NCBI RefSeq assembly: GCF_057098645.1 | Contig: NZ_CM169472.1 | Reading direction: 5' to 3' (one strand) | DNA length: 64,000 nucleotides | Shown: piece after piece, positions 8,510 through 18,133 of the stretch | Position numbering within the stretch: the first letter of the stretch is position 1 | Layout of the letters: every line of letters starts with the position of its first letter | Notes under the pieces: generated by a model | What the model saw: the letters and a program-made list of their open reading frames with translations, nothing else | Database searches by the model: none | What the model was told of the DNA's origin: nothing | Made by a program: the position numbers and the translations under genes

Positions 8510-8545
8510 AAGGCGCAACCTTCACGGGGTGCGCCTGTGTTTTTA
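8510..8545. terminator. Putative terminator between convergent mdtK and ydhQ
   Basis: AGGCGCA...TGCGCCT inverted repeat followed by GTGTTTTT. Confidence 0.4.
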
Positions 8546-9799
8546 CGCAGGCTGGAGCGTTGCGCCAATCCCGTCTTCGTCTGGCTGTAGTTTCAGTGCG
8601 TTACACAGAGTTTGCCGACTGGCATCTGTTATCTCAACGCGTATATCCCCGGTAACTTCCCCTTTCACATTGATGAAGTCAGGTGAAATTTCTTTCGCAC
8701 TGGTTTGCAGGCAAATCGCTCCCTCTCCGCGCAGGCGTTTCACTTTCAGTTGCACATGCGTTGCCGCACCAGTGATCAGCCACAGTTTTCCGCCATTCAG
8801 ATTGATGTTACCAACAATGAAAGTGACACTGTCACCTTTTACCGTACTGCCGTCGAGAATCAACACACCGCCCTGCTGTACAGTAATCGTTGATTGTTGC
8901 AGATCTGCGTCATAGCCAATAATCATTGAAGCGCCGTCCAGTAATGCAACACTCCCGGTCAGTTCAACCGGTGCGCGATCTTCCTCTACGACAAAATTTT
9001 CGTCCGCGCTGGTGGGTGACAACAGGATCACTGTTCCACCTTGTATTACCGCATTTTCCAGCGTACCGGCATGCACTTCAGCCCGACCACCCACATTCAC
9101 GGACAGGTTTTGCGTCTTACCGGAACTGTAGAGCTGAAGGCCATCCGTCCCCAGACGATAAATGGATCCATTCTCAACAATAGTGTCAGAGTCTTCACCA
9201 CCGAGATTATTCATGGTGCCACCAGCAAGCAACGTATCACTGGCTTTCCCGGCCAGCATAAAAACGCCGCCCTGATTAATCTCACAATTGCTGGCTTCCC
9301 CACCTGGATACACCAACAATTCACCACCTTCATCTACCACGACCGCTGAGGTTGTCCCATTAACCAACAGGCCGCCCTCTTGATCGAGAATGATTTTTTC
9401 CGCGCGATGTCCTTCCAGTACACGCAGGTTACCGCCATTTTCCAGCAACAAACCGCAGGCATAACCCTGATCAACGCTGAATTCACCTTCGGGATGGCGG
9501 CCATTAACCGTAGCGAGCGTAGAGAGACTAATTGCGCCTCCCTCGGACTGAACAATATCTGTGGCAATGGCACCGTCGCTGACCGATAGCGTGCCATTGT
9601 TACCGTACTGTGTGCATTTGGCGATCCCACCGGTTGCCACTTTCAACCAGCCAGCCCCCGTGACCACGGTATTTTCGGCTCTTCCGCCAGCTTCAACAAT
9701 CAACTCGCCTTCAGTAAGTTGCGTCGCGCCAATGACCTCGCCGATCTTAACAATTTGCACATTCCCGTCGCTCATCAAGTTTTTCGCATCAGACCCCAT
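8543..9799 (-). CDS. ydhQ: Autotransporter-passenger-like beta-helix protein YdhQ
   Basis: 418-aa Gly/Thr-rich repetitive ORF with no beta-barrel domain. Confidence 0.85.
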   Translation of the reverse strand: MGSDAKNLMSDGNVQIVKIGEVIGATQLTEGELIVEAGGRAENTVVTGAGWLKVATGGIAKCTQYGNNGTLSVSDGAIATDIVQSEGGAISLSTLATVNGRHPEGEFSVDQGYACGLLLENGGNLRVLEGHRAEKIILDQEGGLLVNGTTSAVVVDEGGELLVYPGGEASNCEINQGGVFMLAGKASDTLLAGGTMNNLGGEDSDTIVENGSIYRLGTDGLQLYSSGKTQNLSVNVGGRAEVHAGTLENAVIQGGTVILLSPTSADENFVVEEDRAPVELTGSVALLDGASMIIGYDADLQQSTITVQQGGVLILDGSTVKGDSVTFIVGNINLNGGKLWLITGAATHVQLKVKRLRGEGAICLQTSAKEISPDFINVKGEVTGDIRVEITDASRQTLCNALKLQPDEDGIGATLQPA

Positions 9800-10802: not shown

Positions 10803-12407
10803 ATGAAAAAAATTGCTATTGTGGGTGCCGGGCCTACGGGGATCTACACCTTATCCTCGCTTCTACAGCAACAAACTCCACTTTCTATTTCTATCTTCGA
10901 GCAGGCTGACGAGGCCGGTGTCGGGATGCCATACAGTGATGAGGAAAACTCAAAAATGATGCTGGCAAATATTGCCAGTATTGAAATACCGCCGATTTAT
11001 TGTACGTATCTCGAATGGCTACAAAAGCAAGAAGCCAGCCATCTCCAGCGTTATGGCGTTAAAAAAGAAACCTTGCACGATCGTCAGTTTTTACCGCGAA
11101 TTCTGCTGGGCGAATATTTCCGCGATCAATTTTTACGATTAGTAGACCAGGCACGAAAGCAAAAATTTGCAGTGGCTGTTTATGAATCATGCCAGGTTAC
11201 CGATCTGCAAATTACAAATGCTGGCGTCATGCTCGCTACAAATCAGGATTTACCCAGCGAGACGTTTGATTTAGCGGTGATTGCCACGGGTCACGTCTGG
11301 CCTGATGAAGAAGAAGCAATCCGAACGTATTTTCCCAGCCCGTGGTCAGGCCTGATGGAAGCAAAGGTCGATGCGTGTAACATGGGTATTATGGGAACAT
11401 CCTTGAGCGGACTGGATGCGGCAATGGCAGTGGCAATTCAGCATGGTTCGTTCATTGAAGATGATAAACAACACGTCGTTTTTCACCGCGATAACGCAAG
11501 TGAAAAGCTAAATATTACGTTAATGTCGCGCACGGGTATTTTACCCGAAGCCGATTTCTATTGCCCTATTCCCTACGAGCCCTTACACATCGTCACTGAT
11601 CAGGCATTAAATGCTGAGATTCAAAAAGGCGAATATGGCCTTTTGGATCGGGTATTTAGATTGATAGTAGAGGAAATCAAGTTTGCTGATCCAGACTGGA
11701 GCCAACGCATAGCCTTAGAGAGCCTGAATGTCGATTCCTTTGCTCAAGCCTGGTTTGCCGAGCGCAAACAACGCGACCCATTTGACTGGGCAGAAAAAAA
11801 TCTCCAGGAAGTCGAACGCAATAAACGAGAAAAACATACTGTTCCCTGGCGTTATGTCATTCTGCGCCTGCATGAAGCAGTACAGGAAATTGTTCCACAT
11901 CTGAATGAACACGACCATAAACGGTTCAGTAAAGGCCTTGCCCGGGTTTTCATCGATAATTATGCCGCAATCCCTTCAGAGTCTATTCGTCGGCTGCTGG
12001 CCTTACGTGAAGCGGGAATCATTCATATTCTCGCTCTCAGTGAAGACTACAAAATGGAAATTAACGAGTCGCGCACCGTCCTGAAAACGGAAGACAACAG
12101 CTACTCGTTTGACGTTTTTATTGATGCCCGCGGGCAGCGTCCGCTTAAAGTGAAAGATATTCCTTTCCCTGGACTACGCGAACAATTACAGAAAACAGGG
12201 GATGAAATCCCTGATGTTGGTGAAGATTATACGTTACAGCAACCCGAAGATATTCGTGGGCGCGTAGCGTTCGGCGCGTTGCCCTGGTTAATGCACGACC
12301 AGCCTTTCGTTCAGGGACTTACGGCATGTGCAGAAATTGGTGAGGCGATGGCTCGGGCGGTCGTAAAACCTGCATCCCTTGCTCGTCGGCGTCTTTCGTT
12401 TGATTAA
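10803..12407 (+). CDS. ydhS: FAD/NAD(P)-binding protein YdhS
   Basis: 534-aa ORF with N-terminal Rossmann motif IAIVGAGPTG. Confidence 0.9.
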   Translation: MKKIAIVGAGPTGIYTLSSLLQQQTPLSISIFEQADEAGVGMPYSDEENSKMMLANIASIEIPPIYCTYLEWLQKQEASHLQRYGVKKETLHDRQFLPRILLGEYFRDQFLRLVDQARKQKFAVAVYESCQVTDLQITNAGVMLATNQDLPSETFDLAVIATGHVWPDEEEAIRTYFPSPWSGLMEAKVDACNMGIMGTSLSGLDAAMAVAIQHGSFIEDDKQHVVFHRDNASEKLNITLMSRTGILPEADFYCPIPYEPLHIVTDQALNAEIQKGEYGLLDRVFRLIVEEIKFADPDWSQRIALESLNVDSFAQAWFAERKQRDPFDWAEKNLQEVERNKREKHTVPWRYVILRLHEAVQEIVPHLNEHDHKRFSKGLARVFIDNYAAIPSESIRRLLALREAGIIHILALSEDYKMEINESRTVLKTEDNSYSFDVFIDARGQRPLKVKDIPFPGLREQLQKTGDEIPDVGEDYTLQQPEDIRGRVAFGALPWLMHDQPFVQGLTACAEIGEAMARAVVKPASLARRRLSFD

Positions 12408-12418
12408 AGGTAAAGCTA

Positions 12419-13231
12419 TCAGCACTCAACAAACTGATGCTGTTCATTAAGACGATAGCGGACTCCGGCTCGAATATTGTTTTCACCTTCAATGGCGACG
12501 GCGAAACGAACTCTTTCGCCGTCATGATATGCCAGTGCGGCGCTTCCTCCTGGCCCGAGAATAATTGAGTCGACCACGCCCGTGCTCACTACCGTTGAAT
12601 TTTCACCGCTGGCAATGATGTGTACATTGTCGCCGCTGTTGGCAATTCTGGCGTTTGCGCCAAAGCTGGCGATTTGCACCAGGTCACCATTACTAGCGAC
12701 ATGACATCGTTCACCCAATGTACAAACGCGTACTCGCATTCCGGTATTCGCAATCCGACTGCTATCTCCAGCGCTGCTTATCCGCGAAGAATTGCCGGTT
12801 ACAGCAACCCGTGCGCGCTCACCGGAGCTGCCAATGTGACTGTTAAAGCCGACACTTCCAATCCGCACGCTATAACCCATACTGGCAATTTGTGCAGCAT
12901 ACCCAGCGGTTGCGATTCTGGCGTTATCCTCACAACAGCCGATGCGAGCATGATCGTCGCTGCGGGCAAACTGACTGCAAAATGGTATCTCTCCGGGGTC
13001 TGTGGCCAGTTTTTGCATAGAGGAAACTTCCTGATGCGCGAAGTTTTCATCCGCCAGCCATTTTTTCCACGCATACTCAACCAGACTCTCCGCCCAGTCC
13101 GTATATCCTTCCTCAATCAGTGCATGATGAATATCGGCATAACTACCGCCGCGTGGGAAATGGCGCAGGAACCAGCGATACATCACCGCTCCGATACGCC
13201 ATTCTCGCAGGTCTGCTCGTGTAATGATCAT
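12419..13231 (-). CDS. ydhT: Uncharacterized protein YdhT (9-residue tandem repeat protein)
   Basis: 270-aa ORF; last gene of the ydhVWXUT cluster. Confidence 0.85.
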   Translation of the reverse strand: MIITRADLREWRIGAVMYRWFLRHFPRGGSYADIHHALIEEGYTDWAESLVEYAWKKWLADENFAHQEVSSMQKLATDPGEIPFCSQFARSDDHARIGCCEDNARIATAGYAAQIASMGYSVRIGSVGFNSHIGSSGERARVAVTGNSSRISSAGDSSRIANTGMRVRVCTLGERCHVASNGDLVQIASFGANARIANSGDNVHIIASGENSTVVSTGVVDSIILGPGGSAALAYHDGERVRFAVAIEGENNIRAGVRYRLNEQHQFVEC

Positions 13232-13234
13232 TCG

Positions 13235-14020
13235 TTAGTGCCGGTGATAGCCATCGACCATGCTTTTAAAGGTTTCGTGTGGCGTACGCCCCGTGGTGCA
13301 AAGATAAAGATGACCGAAGATAAAAAAGAGGCTTATAAATGCCAGAGCAAAATGCGCCTGCAATAACCAGTATCTTACGCCAGGAAACACATCTCCCACG
13401 GCTTGCGGATAGAGACACAGCAGCCCCGTCAATAGTAACAACGGCAGCAATCCATACATGACACCAACATAGGCAACCTGCTGTAAGGGATTAAATTTAG
13501 ACTGGGTTGTTGCCGGGAAAGGATGTTCTTCCCCCTGCATAATGCCAAACAAATAAAATCGCGTTTGTTTTGCCGCCCGCTCCAGCCAACCCTGACGACG
13601 AATGCGATAGTGGTGGCCATTACCCCCAACGGCATTGATCAGAACAAAGCCAAGCCAGCATGCCAGTAACAAAAATCCGCAAACTTCATGCACCGCAACC
13701 AGACTTTTAACCGCAGTTGCGCCCACCAGCGCAAAGTGATTTATCAGCCCACTTGCCAGCAACAATACAAAGAGTAACGCATTCGACCAGTGCCATAATC
13801 TGACCGCTTTGCTGTAAAGATAAATCCTCTCACCATGATCGGTGGCTGATTTCTTCACGCCACGAGCACGAAGCAAGGCGTGCTGCCCCAGCACCAACCA
13901 CATCCCAACCAGCAATACTCCGGCAATGATCAACCACACCGGCCAAAATTCGGGAGTGAACTGTGGCACATAGTTCGCTAACTGGCTCTGAAACTGTTCA
14001 GCATGTTGCGACGGGTTCAT
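13235..14020 (-). CDS. ydhU: Membrane cytochrome b-like subunit YdhU (PhsC family)
   Basis: 261-aa multi-TM ORF. Confidence 0.85.
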   Translation of the reverse strand: MNPSQHAEQFQSQLANYVPQFTPEFWPVWLIIAGVLLVGMWLVLGQHALLRARGVKKSATDHGERIYLYSKAVRLWHWSNALLFVLLLASGLINHFALVGATAVKSLVAVHEVCGFLLLACWLGFVLINAVGGNGHHYRIRRQGWLERAAKQTRFYLFGIMQGEEHPFPATTQSKFNPLQQVAYVGVMYGLLPLLLLTGLLCLYPQAVGDVFPGVRYWLLQAHFALAFISLFFIFGHLYLCTTGRTPHETFKSMVDGYHRH

Positions 14021-14685
14021 ACATTTTCCTTTTTAATCAAATGTTGACCGAACCGGCGATACAGATGCGGTTTCCCGGCACCAGGTAGCTGATATTGATA
14101 GTATTTATTATCCTGCAACCACGCCTGAATTTCTGGGCTATCTTCGCGACCAAAGATCAATGCGTGTTCCGGGCAGGCGCTGACGCAAATGGGCGGAAAG
14201 CCTTTTGCCAGTCGGGACTCAGCGCAGAAATCACATTTATCTGCCACTTTAGTGACAGGGTTAAGGTAGCGAACCTGGTACGGACAAGCGCCAATGCAAT
14301 AACTGCAGCCGATGTACTGCGATTTTTCTACCCGCACGATCCCCTGCTCATCACGCCACGACGCCCCTGTCGGGCATACGTCGATGCACGGAGCATCTTC
14401 GCAGTGCTGACATGACTGGCGAAAAAAGTGATACTGCGTTTCGTTGTCGTTATCGGTGACTGGAATGTGTGCTATCGATAAACGGCTTCCCTGAGCGGGG
14501 ACGTGATTGGTTTTACGGCATGCGCGGGCGCAAATATTACAGCCATTGCACCGTGACTCGTCATGAATCATGGCATACCGAACTTCCTTTTCTTGCCTCG
14601 TGTTCGCTAACAGAGAAGACGCAGAACCAGTAAAAAAGATTACTGTTCCCATCCCCAGAACAAATTTGCGTCGAGTGAAGGACAT
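14017..14685 (-). CDS. ydhX: 4Fe-4S ferredoxin-like protein YdhX with Tat signal
   Basis: Start chosen at MSFTRRKFVLG (twin-arginine motif) with AGGGGA Shine-Dalgarno; multiple CxxCxxCxxxCP clusters; 4-bp overlap with ydhU. Confidence 0.85.
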   Translation of the reverse strand: MSFTRRKFVLGMGTVIFFTGSASSLLANTRQEKEVRYAMIHDESRCNGCNICARACRKTNHVPAQGSRLSIAHIPVTDNDNETQYHFFRQSCQHCEDAPCIDVCPTGASWRDEQGIVRVEKSQYIGCSYCIGACPYQVRYLNPVTKVADKCDFCAESRLAKGFPPICVSACPEHALIFGREDSPEIQAWLQDNKYYQYQLPGAGKPHLYRRFGQHLIKKENV

Positions 14686-14748
14686 CTGATTATCCCCTAA
14701 TGCAGTGGCTGCAACTGTCCACCCTATCCATGACATCTCCCTGAAATT

Positions 14749-15396
14749 TCAGGGGTTCTGAAACTGCTCTACCTCGAACCATTCGCATAAGCCATAAGCC
14801 TTGCCATAGGTCATAAATCGCTCGCTAAACAAGTACAACACCGCCGTCGATGACTCCACCTGCCGTATATCGGCATATTCAGGTGCAACATCCATCGCGG
14901 CGATCGCGGCTTCAATCTGCGCTTCCTGGAAGTAATATGGCGCTTGCATCAGCATGGCGACTTTGTAAGGACGAGGATACGTCTGGCACTCAAAACGAAC
15001 GGCGTGTGCAATGGCGCGACAAATGTCCTGCTCCACAACTTGCAAAGACATCGCCGCGTAGTTTTCACTCATGGCCTGCGTTGAGTAATAGTAATCATCC
15101 TGGCTTCCCGTCATACACGCGATATCCGCGTAGTCTCCGTTCTGCTTGATGTTTTCCAGCAAAACTGACAGTTCCTCTTCTGCAACCGAATAGGGTGGCG
15201 AGAGAAACACGGTGCGCGCCACCAGCTGCCCAGCCGCAGAATGCTGGCGAATGAACTCTGCCAGGATTTCAGCCGGTTCTGGTTCCGTTACCGTATCAAC
15301 GGGGTGACGCATCCCCTGCAACCATTGCCGCTTCGCCTCGTCAACTTCGCTGACTTTCGCTAACGGCAATTCATCCCGATGGTTCATCTTACCCAT
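14749..15396 (-). CDS. ydhW: Uncharacterized protein YdhW
   Basis: 215-aa ORF. Confidence 0.85.
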   Translation of the reverse strand: MGKMNHRDELPLAKVSEVDEAKRQWLQGMRHPVDTVTEPEPAEILAEFIRQHSAAGQLVARTVFLSPPYSVAEEELSVLLENIKQNGDYADIACMTGSQDDYYYSTQAMSENYAAMSLQVVEQDICRAIAHAVRFECQTYPRPYKVAMLMQAPYYFQEAQIEAAIAAMDVAPEYADIRQVESSTAVLYLFSERFMTYGKAYGLCEWFEVEQFQNP

Positions 15397-15399
15397 TCC

Positions 15400-17247
<1,848 letters not shown>

Positions 17248-17287
17248 TTACTGATTTAGTGTATGATGGTGTTTTTGAGGTGCTCCA

Positions 17288-17563
17288 GTGGCTTCTGTTT
17301 CTATCAGCTGTCCCTCCTGTTCAGCTACTGACGGGGTGGTGCGTAACGGCAAAAGCACCGCCGGACATCAGCGCTATCTCTGCTCTCACTGCCGTAAAAC
17401 ATGGCAACTGCAGTTCACTTACACCGCTTCTCAACCCGGTACGCACCAGAAAATCATTGATATGGCCATGAATGGCGTTGGATGCCGGGCAACCGCCCGC
17501 ATTATGGGCGTTGGCCTCAACACGATTTTCCGCCATTTAAAAAACTCAGGCCGCAGTCGGTAA
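17288..17563 (+). CDS. insA: IS1 InsA
   Basis: 91-aa [42 protein letters not shown]... Confidence 0.95.
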
Positions 17564-17985
17564 CCTCGCGCATACAGCCGGGCAGTGACGTCATCGTCTG
17601 CGCGGAAATGGACGAACAGTGGGGATACGTCGGGGCTAAATCGCGCCAGCGCTGGCTGTTTTACGCGTATGACAGGCTCCGGAAGACGGTTGTTGCGCAC
17701 GTATTCGGTGAACGCACTATGGCGACGCTGGGGCGTCTTATGAGCCTGCTGTCACCCTTTGACGTGGTGATATGGATGACGGATGGCTGGCCGCTGTATG
17801 AATCCCGCCTGAAGGGAAAGCTGCACGTAATCAGCAAGCGATATACGCAGCGAATTGAGCGGCATAACCTGAATCTGAGGCAGCACCTGGCACGGCTGGG
17901 ACGGAAGTCGCTGTCGTTCTCAAAATCGGTGGAGCTGCATGACAAAGTCATCGGGCATTATCTGAACATAAAACACTATCAATAA
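17482..17985 (+). CDS. insB: IS1 InsB reading frame (expressed as InsAB' by -1 frameshift)
   Basis: InsB frame ...[21 protein letters not shown]...; A6C slippery motif AAAAAAC at 17539-17545. Confidence 0.9.
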
Positions 17986-18133
17986 GTTGGAGTCATTACC
18001 TACGCTGCTGACTCTGTCCCCAACACCAGATATTTTCCCTAACCCGATAGTGTATGAGAAAAGATTTAACGCCGATAAACTAATCCTTTATGGTTAGGAG
18101 AAAAAATAATGTGGTTATTCTGGGCTCTTAACA

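Follow-up and report, generated by a model that had tools for sequence, protein, structure and literature searches.

Why does an oxidoreductase operon of Escherichia coli end in a gene for a protein made largely of short repeats? The question is raised by ydhT, the last gene of ydhYVWXUT, which lies on the minus strand of a 64,000-nucleotide stretch of DNA (the window) from contig NZ_CM169472.1 of NCBI RefSeq assembly GCF_057098645.1. Judged by its match to NF007410, the curated YdhT equivalog of NCBIfam (490.3 bits against a cut-off of 300, E = 1.5e-147, residues 2-270), the open reading frame is E. coli YdhT. The protein has been listed solely as a Class V oxidoreductase subunit or gene, with no function assigned (PMC13328260), and elsewhere in the literature that we searched it appears as an operon member or table entry, with nothing functional reported. 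The "YdhT" placed beside panF in one paper (PMC5120140) is a typographical error for yhdT. The answer that we favor, and to which we give about an even chance, is that YdhT is a capped solenoid from a phage-type protein family that was captured once and now serves as a protein-binding accessory factor of the Ydh system, and that it is neither an enzyme nor a filament.

The nonapeptide array and predicted fold of YdhT

The central part of YdhT is built from units of nine residues (Table 1). Thirteen canonical units follow one another in perfect register, with Gly at position 9 and Ile or Val at position 5 in all 13 and the consensus [DE]-N-[AVS]-[RH]-[IV]-A-S-x-G; two degenerate units lead the array and another trails it (residues 219-227). 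When the protein is aligned with itself, BLOSUM62 similarity reaches z = 11.3, 10.3, 9.7 and 10.0 at lags of 9, 18, 27 and 36 residues (1000 shuffles), and no lag other than the multiples of nine rises above z = 1. These results bear out the sequence-only reading in which the repeats were noticed. It had counted about 13 tandem nine-residue repeats with Gly at every ninth position, and the repeat string that it quoted is exact in the translation. It had placed them at 12600-12950, which is the right region but slightly narrower than the 12551-12982 found here.

The same reading had reported a 27-bp periodicity in the DNA, which is real but weak. Nucleotide identity at lags of 27, 54 and 81 is 0.43, 0.46 and 0.42, compared with about 0.28 elsewhere (z = 6.6, 7.4 and 5.6 against codon shuffles), but Tandem Repeats Finder sees no 27-bp array in ydhT and returns a single 14-bp two-copy chance match. 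Because the units are only 45% identical to one another in DNA on average (34% in protein), and because no array is recognized by Tandem Repeats Finder, we conclude that the repeat is old, diverged and maintained at the protein level, and is not a recent DNA duplication. All Escherichia YdhT proteins are 270 residues long and have diverged units. Position 4 is Arg, His or Gln in 12 of the 13 units, and this residue is conserved unit by unit among orthologs. The net charge of the repeat region is +1, with an isoelectric point of 7.9, and the isoelectric point of the whole protein is 6.2.

Structure prediction turns this array into a rod between folded ends. The AlphaFold2 model, built from a shallow alignment of 16 sequences (A1), has a mean predicted local distance difference test score (pLDDT) of 89.8, with values of 84-97 across the array, and a predicted template modeling score (pTM) of 0.85. 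It places one four-residue strand in every nine residues from residue 87 to about residue 225. In this model, YdhT is a beta-solenoid in the general sense of tandem strand-giving units arranged in a parallel superhelix, in agreement with the earlier suggestion of beta-helix-like repeats, and two units (18 residues) probably form one coil of a flattened, two-sheet solenoid. The units also show a solenoid-type pattern, consisting of an invariant turn Gly, an alternating Ile/Val core and Asn or Asp at the turn. We argue that the predicted solenoid is real and not an artefact because the units are imperfect, because they carry this pattern, because the repeats are under purifying selection, and because homologs differ by whole units.

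The two ends of the rod are distinct from it and from each other. The N-terminal head comprises five predicted helices (residues 5-11, 15-24, 31-41, 44-58 and 62-76) and is followed by a linker in which the orthologs of Limnobaculum, Edwardsiella and Proteus carry insertions. The C-terminal cap has predicted strands at residues 220-225, 230-236, 241-247, 258-261 and 267-269, and in YdhT it bears the motif LGPGGxAALAYHDGERxRFAVAxEGENxIRAGVxYRLN..FVEC. Alignment column entropy is 1.69 over residues 79-101, 0.57 in the repeats and 0.38 in the cap, the region in which the family as a whole is best conserved.

The sequence-only reading had also likened the repeats to bactofilins and pointed to left-handed beta-helix families, and neither kinship survived the profile searches. 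A Pfam-A hmmscan of YdhT at E <= 10 gave no match to Bactofilin (PF04519), Hexapep, HemolysinCabind, Pentapeptide or Collagen and returned sub-threshold noise alone (DUF6876 at E = 0.035, MSSS and Asp_decarbox); a search of PDB sequences with full-length YdhT found no match. A left-handed hexapeptide repeat (PF00132) was rejected on its period as well, given that similarity at lag 6 has a z of 0.4. The pentapeptide repeat (PF00805, A(D/N)LxX) fares no better (z = -1.2 at lag 5 and -2.0 at lag 10), and a collagen-like repeat (PF01391) would need Gly at every third residue rather than every ninth (z = -0.2 at lag 3). The RTX or HemolysinCabind repeat (PF00353) shares the nine-residue period, but its GGxGxD turn is absent from YdhT. 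A role for the cysteines as ligands of metal ions or Fe-S clusters was likewise set aside, as they are not conserved in the 16-sequence alignment.

Comparison of structures leads to a similar outcome. A Foldseek search of the PDB with the YdhT model returned nothing significant, the best match being CAP at E = 0.09; three-sided pectate-lyase and tailspike helices also score, and bactofilin is absent from the top 60. Matches in BFVD are uncharacterised phage proteins alone, including DUF7666 proteins, a protein of Pseudomonas phage EL and 43L of Xanthomonas phage Xp10. The closest known systems include the CARP-domain solenoids (CAP, 1k8f; RP2, 3bh6; TBCC, 9m1n) and the two-sheet right-handed helices of MinC/SufD type, to which YdhT shows no sequence kinship; its units differ from theirs in length and motif, and its head and cap are its own. 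The RTX beta-roll (GGxGxDxUx; CyaA blocks, PDB 6sus) and the Ca2+-dependent region IV of MpAFP (3p4g) resemble YdhT in geometry and in their period of nine. However, YdhT has one Gly per unit in place of the GGxG turn, no conserved Ca2+-binding Asp, a core of Ile/Val and small residues, and, as a cytoplasmic protein, no signal peptide or secretion signal. Bactofilins, like YdhT, are beta-helical repeat proteins of the bacterial cytoplasm and have no enzymatic activity, but they have another period and disordered tails where YdhT has folded terminal domains. Curli proteins of the CsgA type (8c50, 8enq) have units of 19-23 residues with Gln/Asn ladders and are secreted and amyloid, whereas YdhT is cytoplasmic, is capped at both ends and has a nine-residue unit.

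Operon linkage and the phage-borne relatives

A repeat protein had been called unexpected in an oxidoreductase operon. That was a fair remark, but ydhT proves to be a constant member of this one. We surveyed one genome per species with a YdhW profile, whose reach is the Enterobacterales, and recovered 45 loci in nine genera (Escherichia, Citrobacter, Limnobaculum, Leminorella, Budvicia, Brenneria, Proteus, Serratia and Symbiopectobacterium). By tblastn, the gene order is Y-V-W-X-U-T in all 45, with ydhT last, after ydhU, and these two genes either lie 3 nucleotides apart or overlap. The genes that flank the operon vary between genera. Full-length ydhT is present in 42 of the 45 loci, the exceptions being a locus that ends inside ydhT, a decaying symbiont genome, and the second operon copy of Citrobacter sp. 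NCU1. Within E. coli, ydhT was found in 5417 of 5426 complete genomes.

Two further operons deserve separate mention. Edwardsiella tarda (L004, 3690-8954), a genus additional to the nine above, carries ydhY-V-W-X-T without ydhU and keeps ydhT as the last gene (41% identity, 317 residues); its operon adjoins a nap nitrate reductase cluster. Citrobacter sp. NCU1 has two ydh operons (L020 and L032); the ydhT of the second breaks off after about 37 codons (about 9146-9260) and is followed by a fragment like the N-terminus of a P4-type integrase, which suggests that an integrative element inserted there.

The retained genes evolve under clear purifying selection, as judged from codon comparisons. 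Against four other Escherichia lineages, the ratio of nonsynonymous to synonymous substitution rates (dN/dS) is 0.04-0.09 for ydhT as a whole; for the repeats alone it is 0.03-0.09, and for the cap 0.01-0.04. In a set of 19 orthologs from Escherichia and Citrobacter, entropy by position in the unit is 0.08 at position 9, 0.33 at position 2, 0.45 at position 4 and 0.47 at position 6, and is highest at position 3 (1.14). Because entropies are low at positions 2, 4 and 6, the rows that these residues presumably present outward are at least as constrained as those of the core (positions 3, 5 and 7). Insertions and deletions among homologs are multiples of nine residues.

Most relatives of YdhT lie outside the operon. 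A word-indexed search found close relatives only (47 proteins, all with precomputed PF27195, YdhT_N), whereas a HMMER profile search of 1.84 billion cluster representatives recovered 1188 proteins at E <= 1e-3 and 490 at E <= 1e-10. Most of these matches cover the repeats and the C-terminal domain and have other N-termini. A rough sorting by regular expressions of 147 new sequences among the best 150 matches gave 40 with a YdhT_N-like head, 32 with a DUF7666-like head (KAYKGF..CRGFQYEVGKTY..GFHACENPLDV), 13 with a "CGxGLHG" domain that sometimes follows a Macro domain, 43 with other heads, including PcfJ-like and collagen-triplet N-termini, and 19 fragments of less than 180 residues. Common to all head classes is the cap motif LGxGGCAAL-x3-DGxRxRF-x-VAYVGENGIKA-x3-Y-x-LN-x2-G-x-FVE. 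A profile of the C-terminal module (A3) has no PDB match, and a Pfam scan of its members gave only scattered chance matches; a profile of 26 diverse heads (A4) matched only a TPR protein in PDB by chance (E = 0.69) and gave scattered chance matches in local Pfam. By these profile comparisons, the rod and cap module is a large family without a representative in the copy of Pfam searched or in PDB. The recorded names of ten family members are "hypothetical protein" plus one Macro-domain name.

The module is shared by about 1,200 protein clusters, most of which belong to phages or mobile elements and are encoded in their early or accessory regions. YdhT matches PHROG 4433, a family of unknown function, at E = 2.8e-6. 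Among the phage homologs detected by tblastn are ORF55 of Edwardsiella phage GF-2 (36% identity over residues 1-243), directly downstream of the N antiterminator gene; gene 180 of Komagataeibacter phage phiKX1, after an antirepressor; gp50 of Paracoccus phage Shpa, after helicase and primase; and a protein of Dulem virus 31, whose gene follows those of a replisome organiser and an endonuclease; there are others as well. The contigs that bear metagenomic members are phage-like and include terminase, integrase, primase and Bro-N genes. All of the phage and contig homologs examined are in early, replication or accessory regions, and none is among the structural genes. They are true homologs and share with YdhT the nonapeptide unit (SSGxxA[RQ]IG), the cap motif and in some cases the YdhT_N head. 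They also keep Arg, Gln or Lys at position 4 of the unit. Unlike YdhT, they have near-identical units in variable copy number, do not lie beside oxidoreductase genes and are all uncharacterised.

Repeat number in these phage proteins can change abruptly. GF-2 ORF55 carries about 26 almost perfect SSG[DNY]xA[RQ]IG units, and copy number ranges from a few to nearly 30 between proteins that are at least 90% identical. In one cluster at this identity (P0070 and P0195-P0199; locus L060, 7001-8641), the proteins are 375, 384, 447, 501, 546 and 609 residues long, and P0195-P0199 differ from P0070 by exactly -19, -18, -11, -5 and +7 of their near-identical SQLSASG[DWN]x units. The predicted solenoid is therefore hypervariable in length in P0070-type elements. 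A 54-bp in-frame deletion reported in "ydhT_1" of Serratia symbiotica, in a clone evolved under prophage activation (PMC12505973), amounts to exactly two repeat units.

In a neighbour-joining tree of heads and caps, the operon-linked YdhT proteins group together in 100 of 100 bootstraps, as a clade that is nested within the phage-type YdhT_N proteins and whose nearest neighbours are GF-2 ORF55 and a protein from a phage contig. The simplest history that fits this tree is that the operon captured a phage gene once and that the two were inherited together thereafter. The YdhT family, its rods of variable length and the passage from phage to operon are not described in the literature searched, in which we found nothing on DUF7666, PF27195 or phrog_4433 and nothing relevant on a nonapeptide-repeat solenoid in a prophage.

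Candidate functions of YdhT

What might such a protein contribute to the operon? We propose that YdhT is a cytoplasmic, non-enzymatic protein in which a five-helix head, a rigid rod of about 15-16 nonapeptide units and a conserved beta cap would follow one another, each unit giving one short strand and one Gly-containing turn. One lineage of the family would have entered ydhYVWXUT once, in the ancestor of the Enterobacterales, after which it was co-inherited while its array diverged and stayed stable in length. YdhT might then serve the Ydh complex as an adaptor, a scaffold or a maturation factor, with a binding surface provided by the outward rows at positions 2, 4 and 6 (Asn, Arg/His/Gln and Ala) together with the head and the cap. 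Conserved sites of this kind include Q114, R141, R150, R166 and the GENNI motif. Such an accessory role is most likely in view of the co-inheritance, the translational-coupling distance to ydhU and the selection on the gene. Co-inheritance and purifying selection are also compatible with the scaffold or assembly factor that had been suggested from the sequence. A more far-reaching version, which we advance only tentatively, is that the phage family uses its architecture as a solenoid spacer of adjustable length in conflicts between phage and host, and that one member was domesticated, frozen in length and recruited as an accessory subunit of a molybdo- or tungsto-enzyme.

Several observations weigh against an accessory role. 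YdhW and YdhT fused through a (G4S)6 linker and modeled by AlphaFold2 with a paired alignment of 15 species gave a pTM of 0.43, a mean pLDDT of 75.5 and no confident interface, and confidence in YdhT was lowered; this was a crude run without interface metrics and with YdhW as the sole partner. The relatives outside the operon are found in phages and mobile elements with no oxidoreductase nearby, and therefore the ancestral function of the module is unrelated to redox enzymes. In other phyla, the operons for Class V oxidoreductases encode other sets of subunits (PMC13328260), and thus YdhT is not needed for the core enzyme. Furthermore, YdhT is the fastest-evolving product of the operon: between E. 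coli and Proteus, identity is 34% for YdhT, 41% for YdhW, 61% for YdhU and 80% for YdhV. Finally, AlphaFold2 tends to over-predict confident beta-solenoids for perfect repeats (PMC11795689), a tendency that bears on the rod itself.

Perhaps, then, the solenoid is an artefact and the repeat region is flexible, of low complexity or collagen-like. The alignment behind the model is shallow, some family members have weak Collagen matches in Pfam, and one phage homolog is annotated as a "putative collagen-like protein". However, the prediction artefact has been described for perfect repeats, and the units of YdhT are 34% identical; they carry the turn Gly, the Ile/Val core and the Asn or Asp that a solenoid needs; the repeats are held at a dN/dS of 0.03-0.09; length changes solely in whole units; and the Gly-X-Y periodicity of collagen is missing. 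We consider an artefact very improbable. Equally little credence is due to the idea of YdhT as a cytoskeletal protein of the bactofilin kind, with molecules that would join end to end in filaments. The overall class of fold would be similar, and the rows of small Ala and Gly residues on the flat faces could allow lateral packing, but the bactofilin profile is not matched, a period of nine with one strand per unit is unlike the bactofilin pattern, and the folded, conserved domains at the two ends, namely the head, whose placement in the model is confident, and the C-terminal cap, would be expected to block head-to-tail stacking.

Two further alternatives concern function. Beta-solenoids of other classes, such as the pentapeptide repeats, are known DNA mimics, and YdhT might use its Arg/His ladders to bind a polyanion, be it nucleic acid, polyphosphate or the head groups of phospholipids, or might itself mimic nucleic acid. 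The conserved Arg, His or Gln at position 4, and its counterpart in the phage relatives, would suit such a role. However, the near-neutral repeat region is that of neither a basic binder nor an acidic mimic, the Arg ladder may do no more than pair with the acidic residues at position 1, and no nucleic-acid-binding family in Pfam or NCBIfam is matched, which leaves this an improbable function. More plausible, though still unlikely in our estimate, is that YdhT is phage-derived and has nothing to do with the oxidoreductase, being instead an exclusion or defence protein, an anti-defence remnant or a factor for host manipulation for which the 3' end of the operon is an expression site. The early and accessory settings of its relatives, the phage protein that is its closest outgroup in the tree and its rapid evolution are consistent with this possibility. 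Two further hints are weak: a machine-learning study ties the ydhT cluster to the infection outcome of one phage (PMC12579225), an association that is correlative, and the Serratia clone with the ydhT_1 deletion was also a dam mutant, its phenotype not being attributed to ydhT_1 (PMC12505973). Against a function apart from the operon stand the 100% co-occurrence and fixed position of ydhT across nine genera with differing flanks, the retained coupling distance to ydhU, the strong purifying selection, and a search of PADLOC-DB 2.0 that matched no defence family (0 families at E <= 1).

The ydhT locus of this strain and the wider meaning of the family

In this strain the operon is incomplete. 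The window is 100% identical to E. coli O145 strain RM9872 from 15001 to 17233 and diverges beyond (BLAST break points against RM9872, 13815/14800), at which point an IS1 element replaces 984 bp of the RM9872 sequence. Gone with these are 269 bp from the 5' end of ydhV, the whole of ydhY and a further 68 bp upstream. The IS1 junction was not found as one contiguous match in any complete E. coli genome of the collection. The operon thus has neither its own promoter nor its first gene here, and ydhT is probably no longer transcribed from that promoter. The event is recent, given that ydhT is intact. The DNA of this ydhT is 100% identical to the ydhT of O145 strains.

Table 1. Features of the ydhT locus, in coordinates of the window
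Feature	Position	Strand	Basis
ydhT reading frame of 270 codons and a stop codon; final gene of ydhYVWXUT	12419..13231	(-)	Open reading frame; NCBIfam NF007410; RM9872 annotation
N-terminal helical head, residues 1-78 (PF27195, YdhT_N), motif YRWFLRxFPxGGxY	12998..13231	(-)	AlphaFold2; precomputed Pfam
Linker, residues 79-84, low confidence (pLDDT <50)	12980..12997	(-)	AlphaFold2; most variable ortholog segment
Two degenerate leading units (..CSQFARSD DHARIGCCE), about residues 84-101	12929..12979	(-)	Register; AlphaFold2 strands 87-90 and 96-99
Thirteen canonical nonapeptide units, residues 102-218	12578..12928	(-)	In-register rows of nine
Last degenerate unit and C-terminal beta cap, residues 219-270	12422..12577	(-)	AlphaFold2 strands; entropy; dN/dS
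ydhU (PhsC-like cytochrome b membrane subunit)	13235..14020	(-)	Open reading frame; RM9872 annotation; adjoins ydhT in 45 species loci
ydhX, ydhW and 3' 1833 bp of ydhV, at 15400-17232 (surviving remainder of the operon)	14017..17232	(-)	Open reading frames; comparison with RM9872
IS1 element	17233..18000	(+)	Terminal repeat 17233-17255, 0 mismatches; InsA/InsB open reading frames

The reference neighbourhood in RM9872 is ydhS > < ydhT-ydhU(phsC)-ydhX-ydhW-ydhV-ydhY. In the window, the gap between the end of ydhU and the start of ydhT (13231) is 3 nucleotides. On the other side, ydhS (plus strand, stop at 12407) and ydhT (stop codon at 12419-12421) converge and are 11 bp apart, and no terminator-like hairpin is present between them. 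An RNA-sequencing tool has named ydhS-ydhT among convergent overlapping ("excludon") pairs (PMC12288877), and genomic SELEX (systematic evolution of ligands by exponential enrichment) has placed a binding peak of the transcription factor RcdA within ydhT, between ydhS and ydhU (PMC3535384). A scan of 12200-13400 for promoters and terminators gave nothing exceeding shuffle expectation, and an Rfam search of 12000-13600 gave no match.

Two other open frames overlap ydhT, one antisense (12620-13366, plus strand, 248 residues) and one in a second frame of the minus strand (12799-13116, 105 residues); both are probably by-products of the codon pattern of the repeats. The database proteins P0035 and P0044 start in the second minus-strand frame and then run on in the frame of YdhT, which suggests that they are frameshifted gene calls. 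At a distance of 2.6 kb, ydhQ (8543-9799, minus strand), annotated as an "AIDA repeat-containing protein", has Gly-rich repeats of beta-helix type that are unrelated to those of YdhT.

YdhT belongs to the remaining set of proteins in genomes of the E. coli K-12 type to which no function is assigned, and the ydh operon is the sole operon for a Class V tungsten/molybdenum oxidoreductase on which any experiments have been done (PMC13328260). Control of the operon by FNR, NarL and NarP has been described in the literature. The fold class was already known and YdhT already catalogued, and we therefore regard the significance of these findings as moderate. What is added is the recognition of a large, undescribed module of nonapeptide solenoid and cap that is mainly phage-borne and that the ydh operon captured a single time. 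As a predicted rigid solenoid, capped, with conserved rows on its surface and a fixed place in the operon throughout the Enterobacterales, YdhT offers a concrete target for work on the assembly of the Ydh complex. Of the roughly 1,200 clusters that share the module, most represent phage or mobile-element genes of the early class, and some are fused to Macro or DUF7666 domains; the hypervariable repeat number of the phage members may reflect either a length ruler or variation driven by slippage. If the domestication proposed above is true, YdhT would be a case of exaptation from a phage to a metabolic operon.

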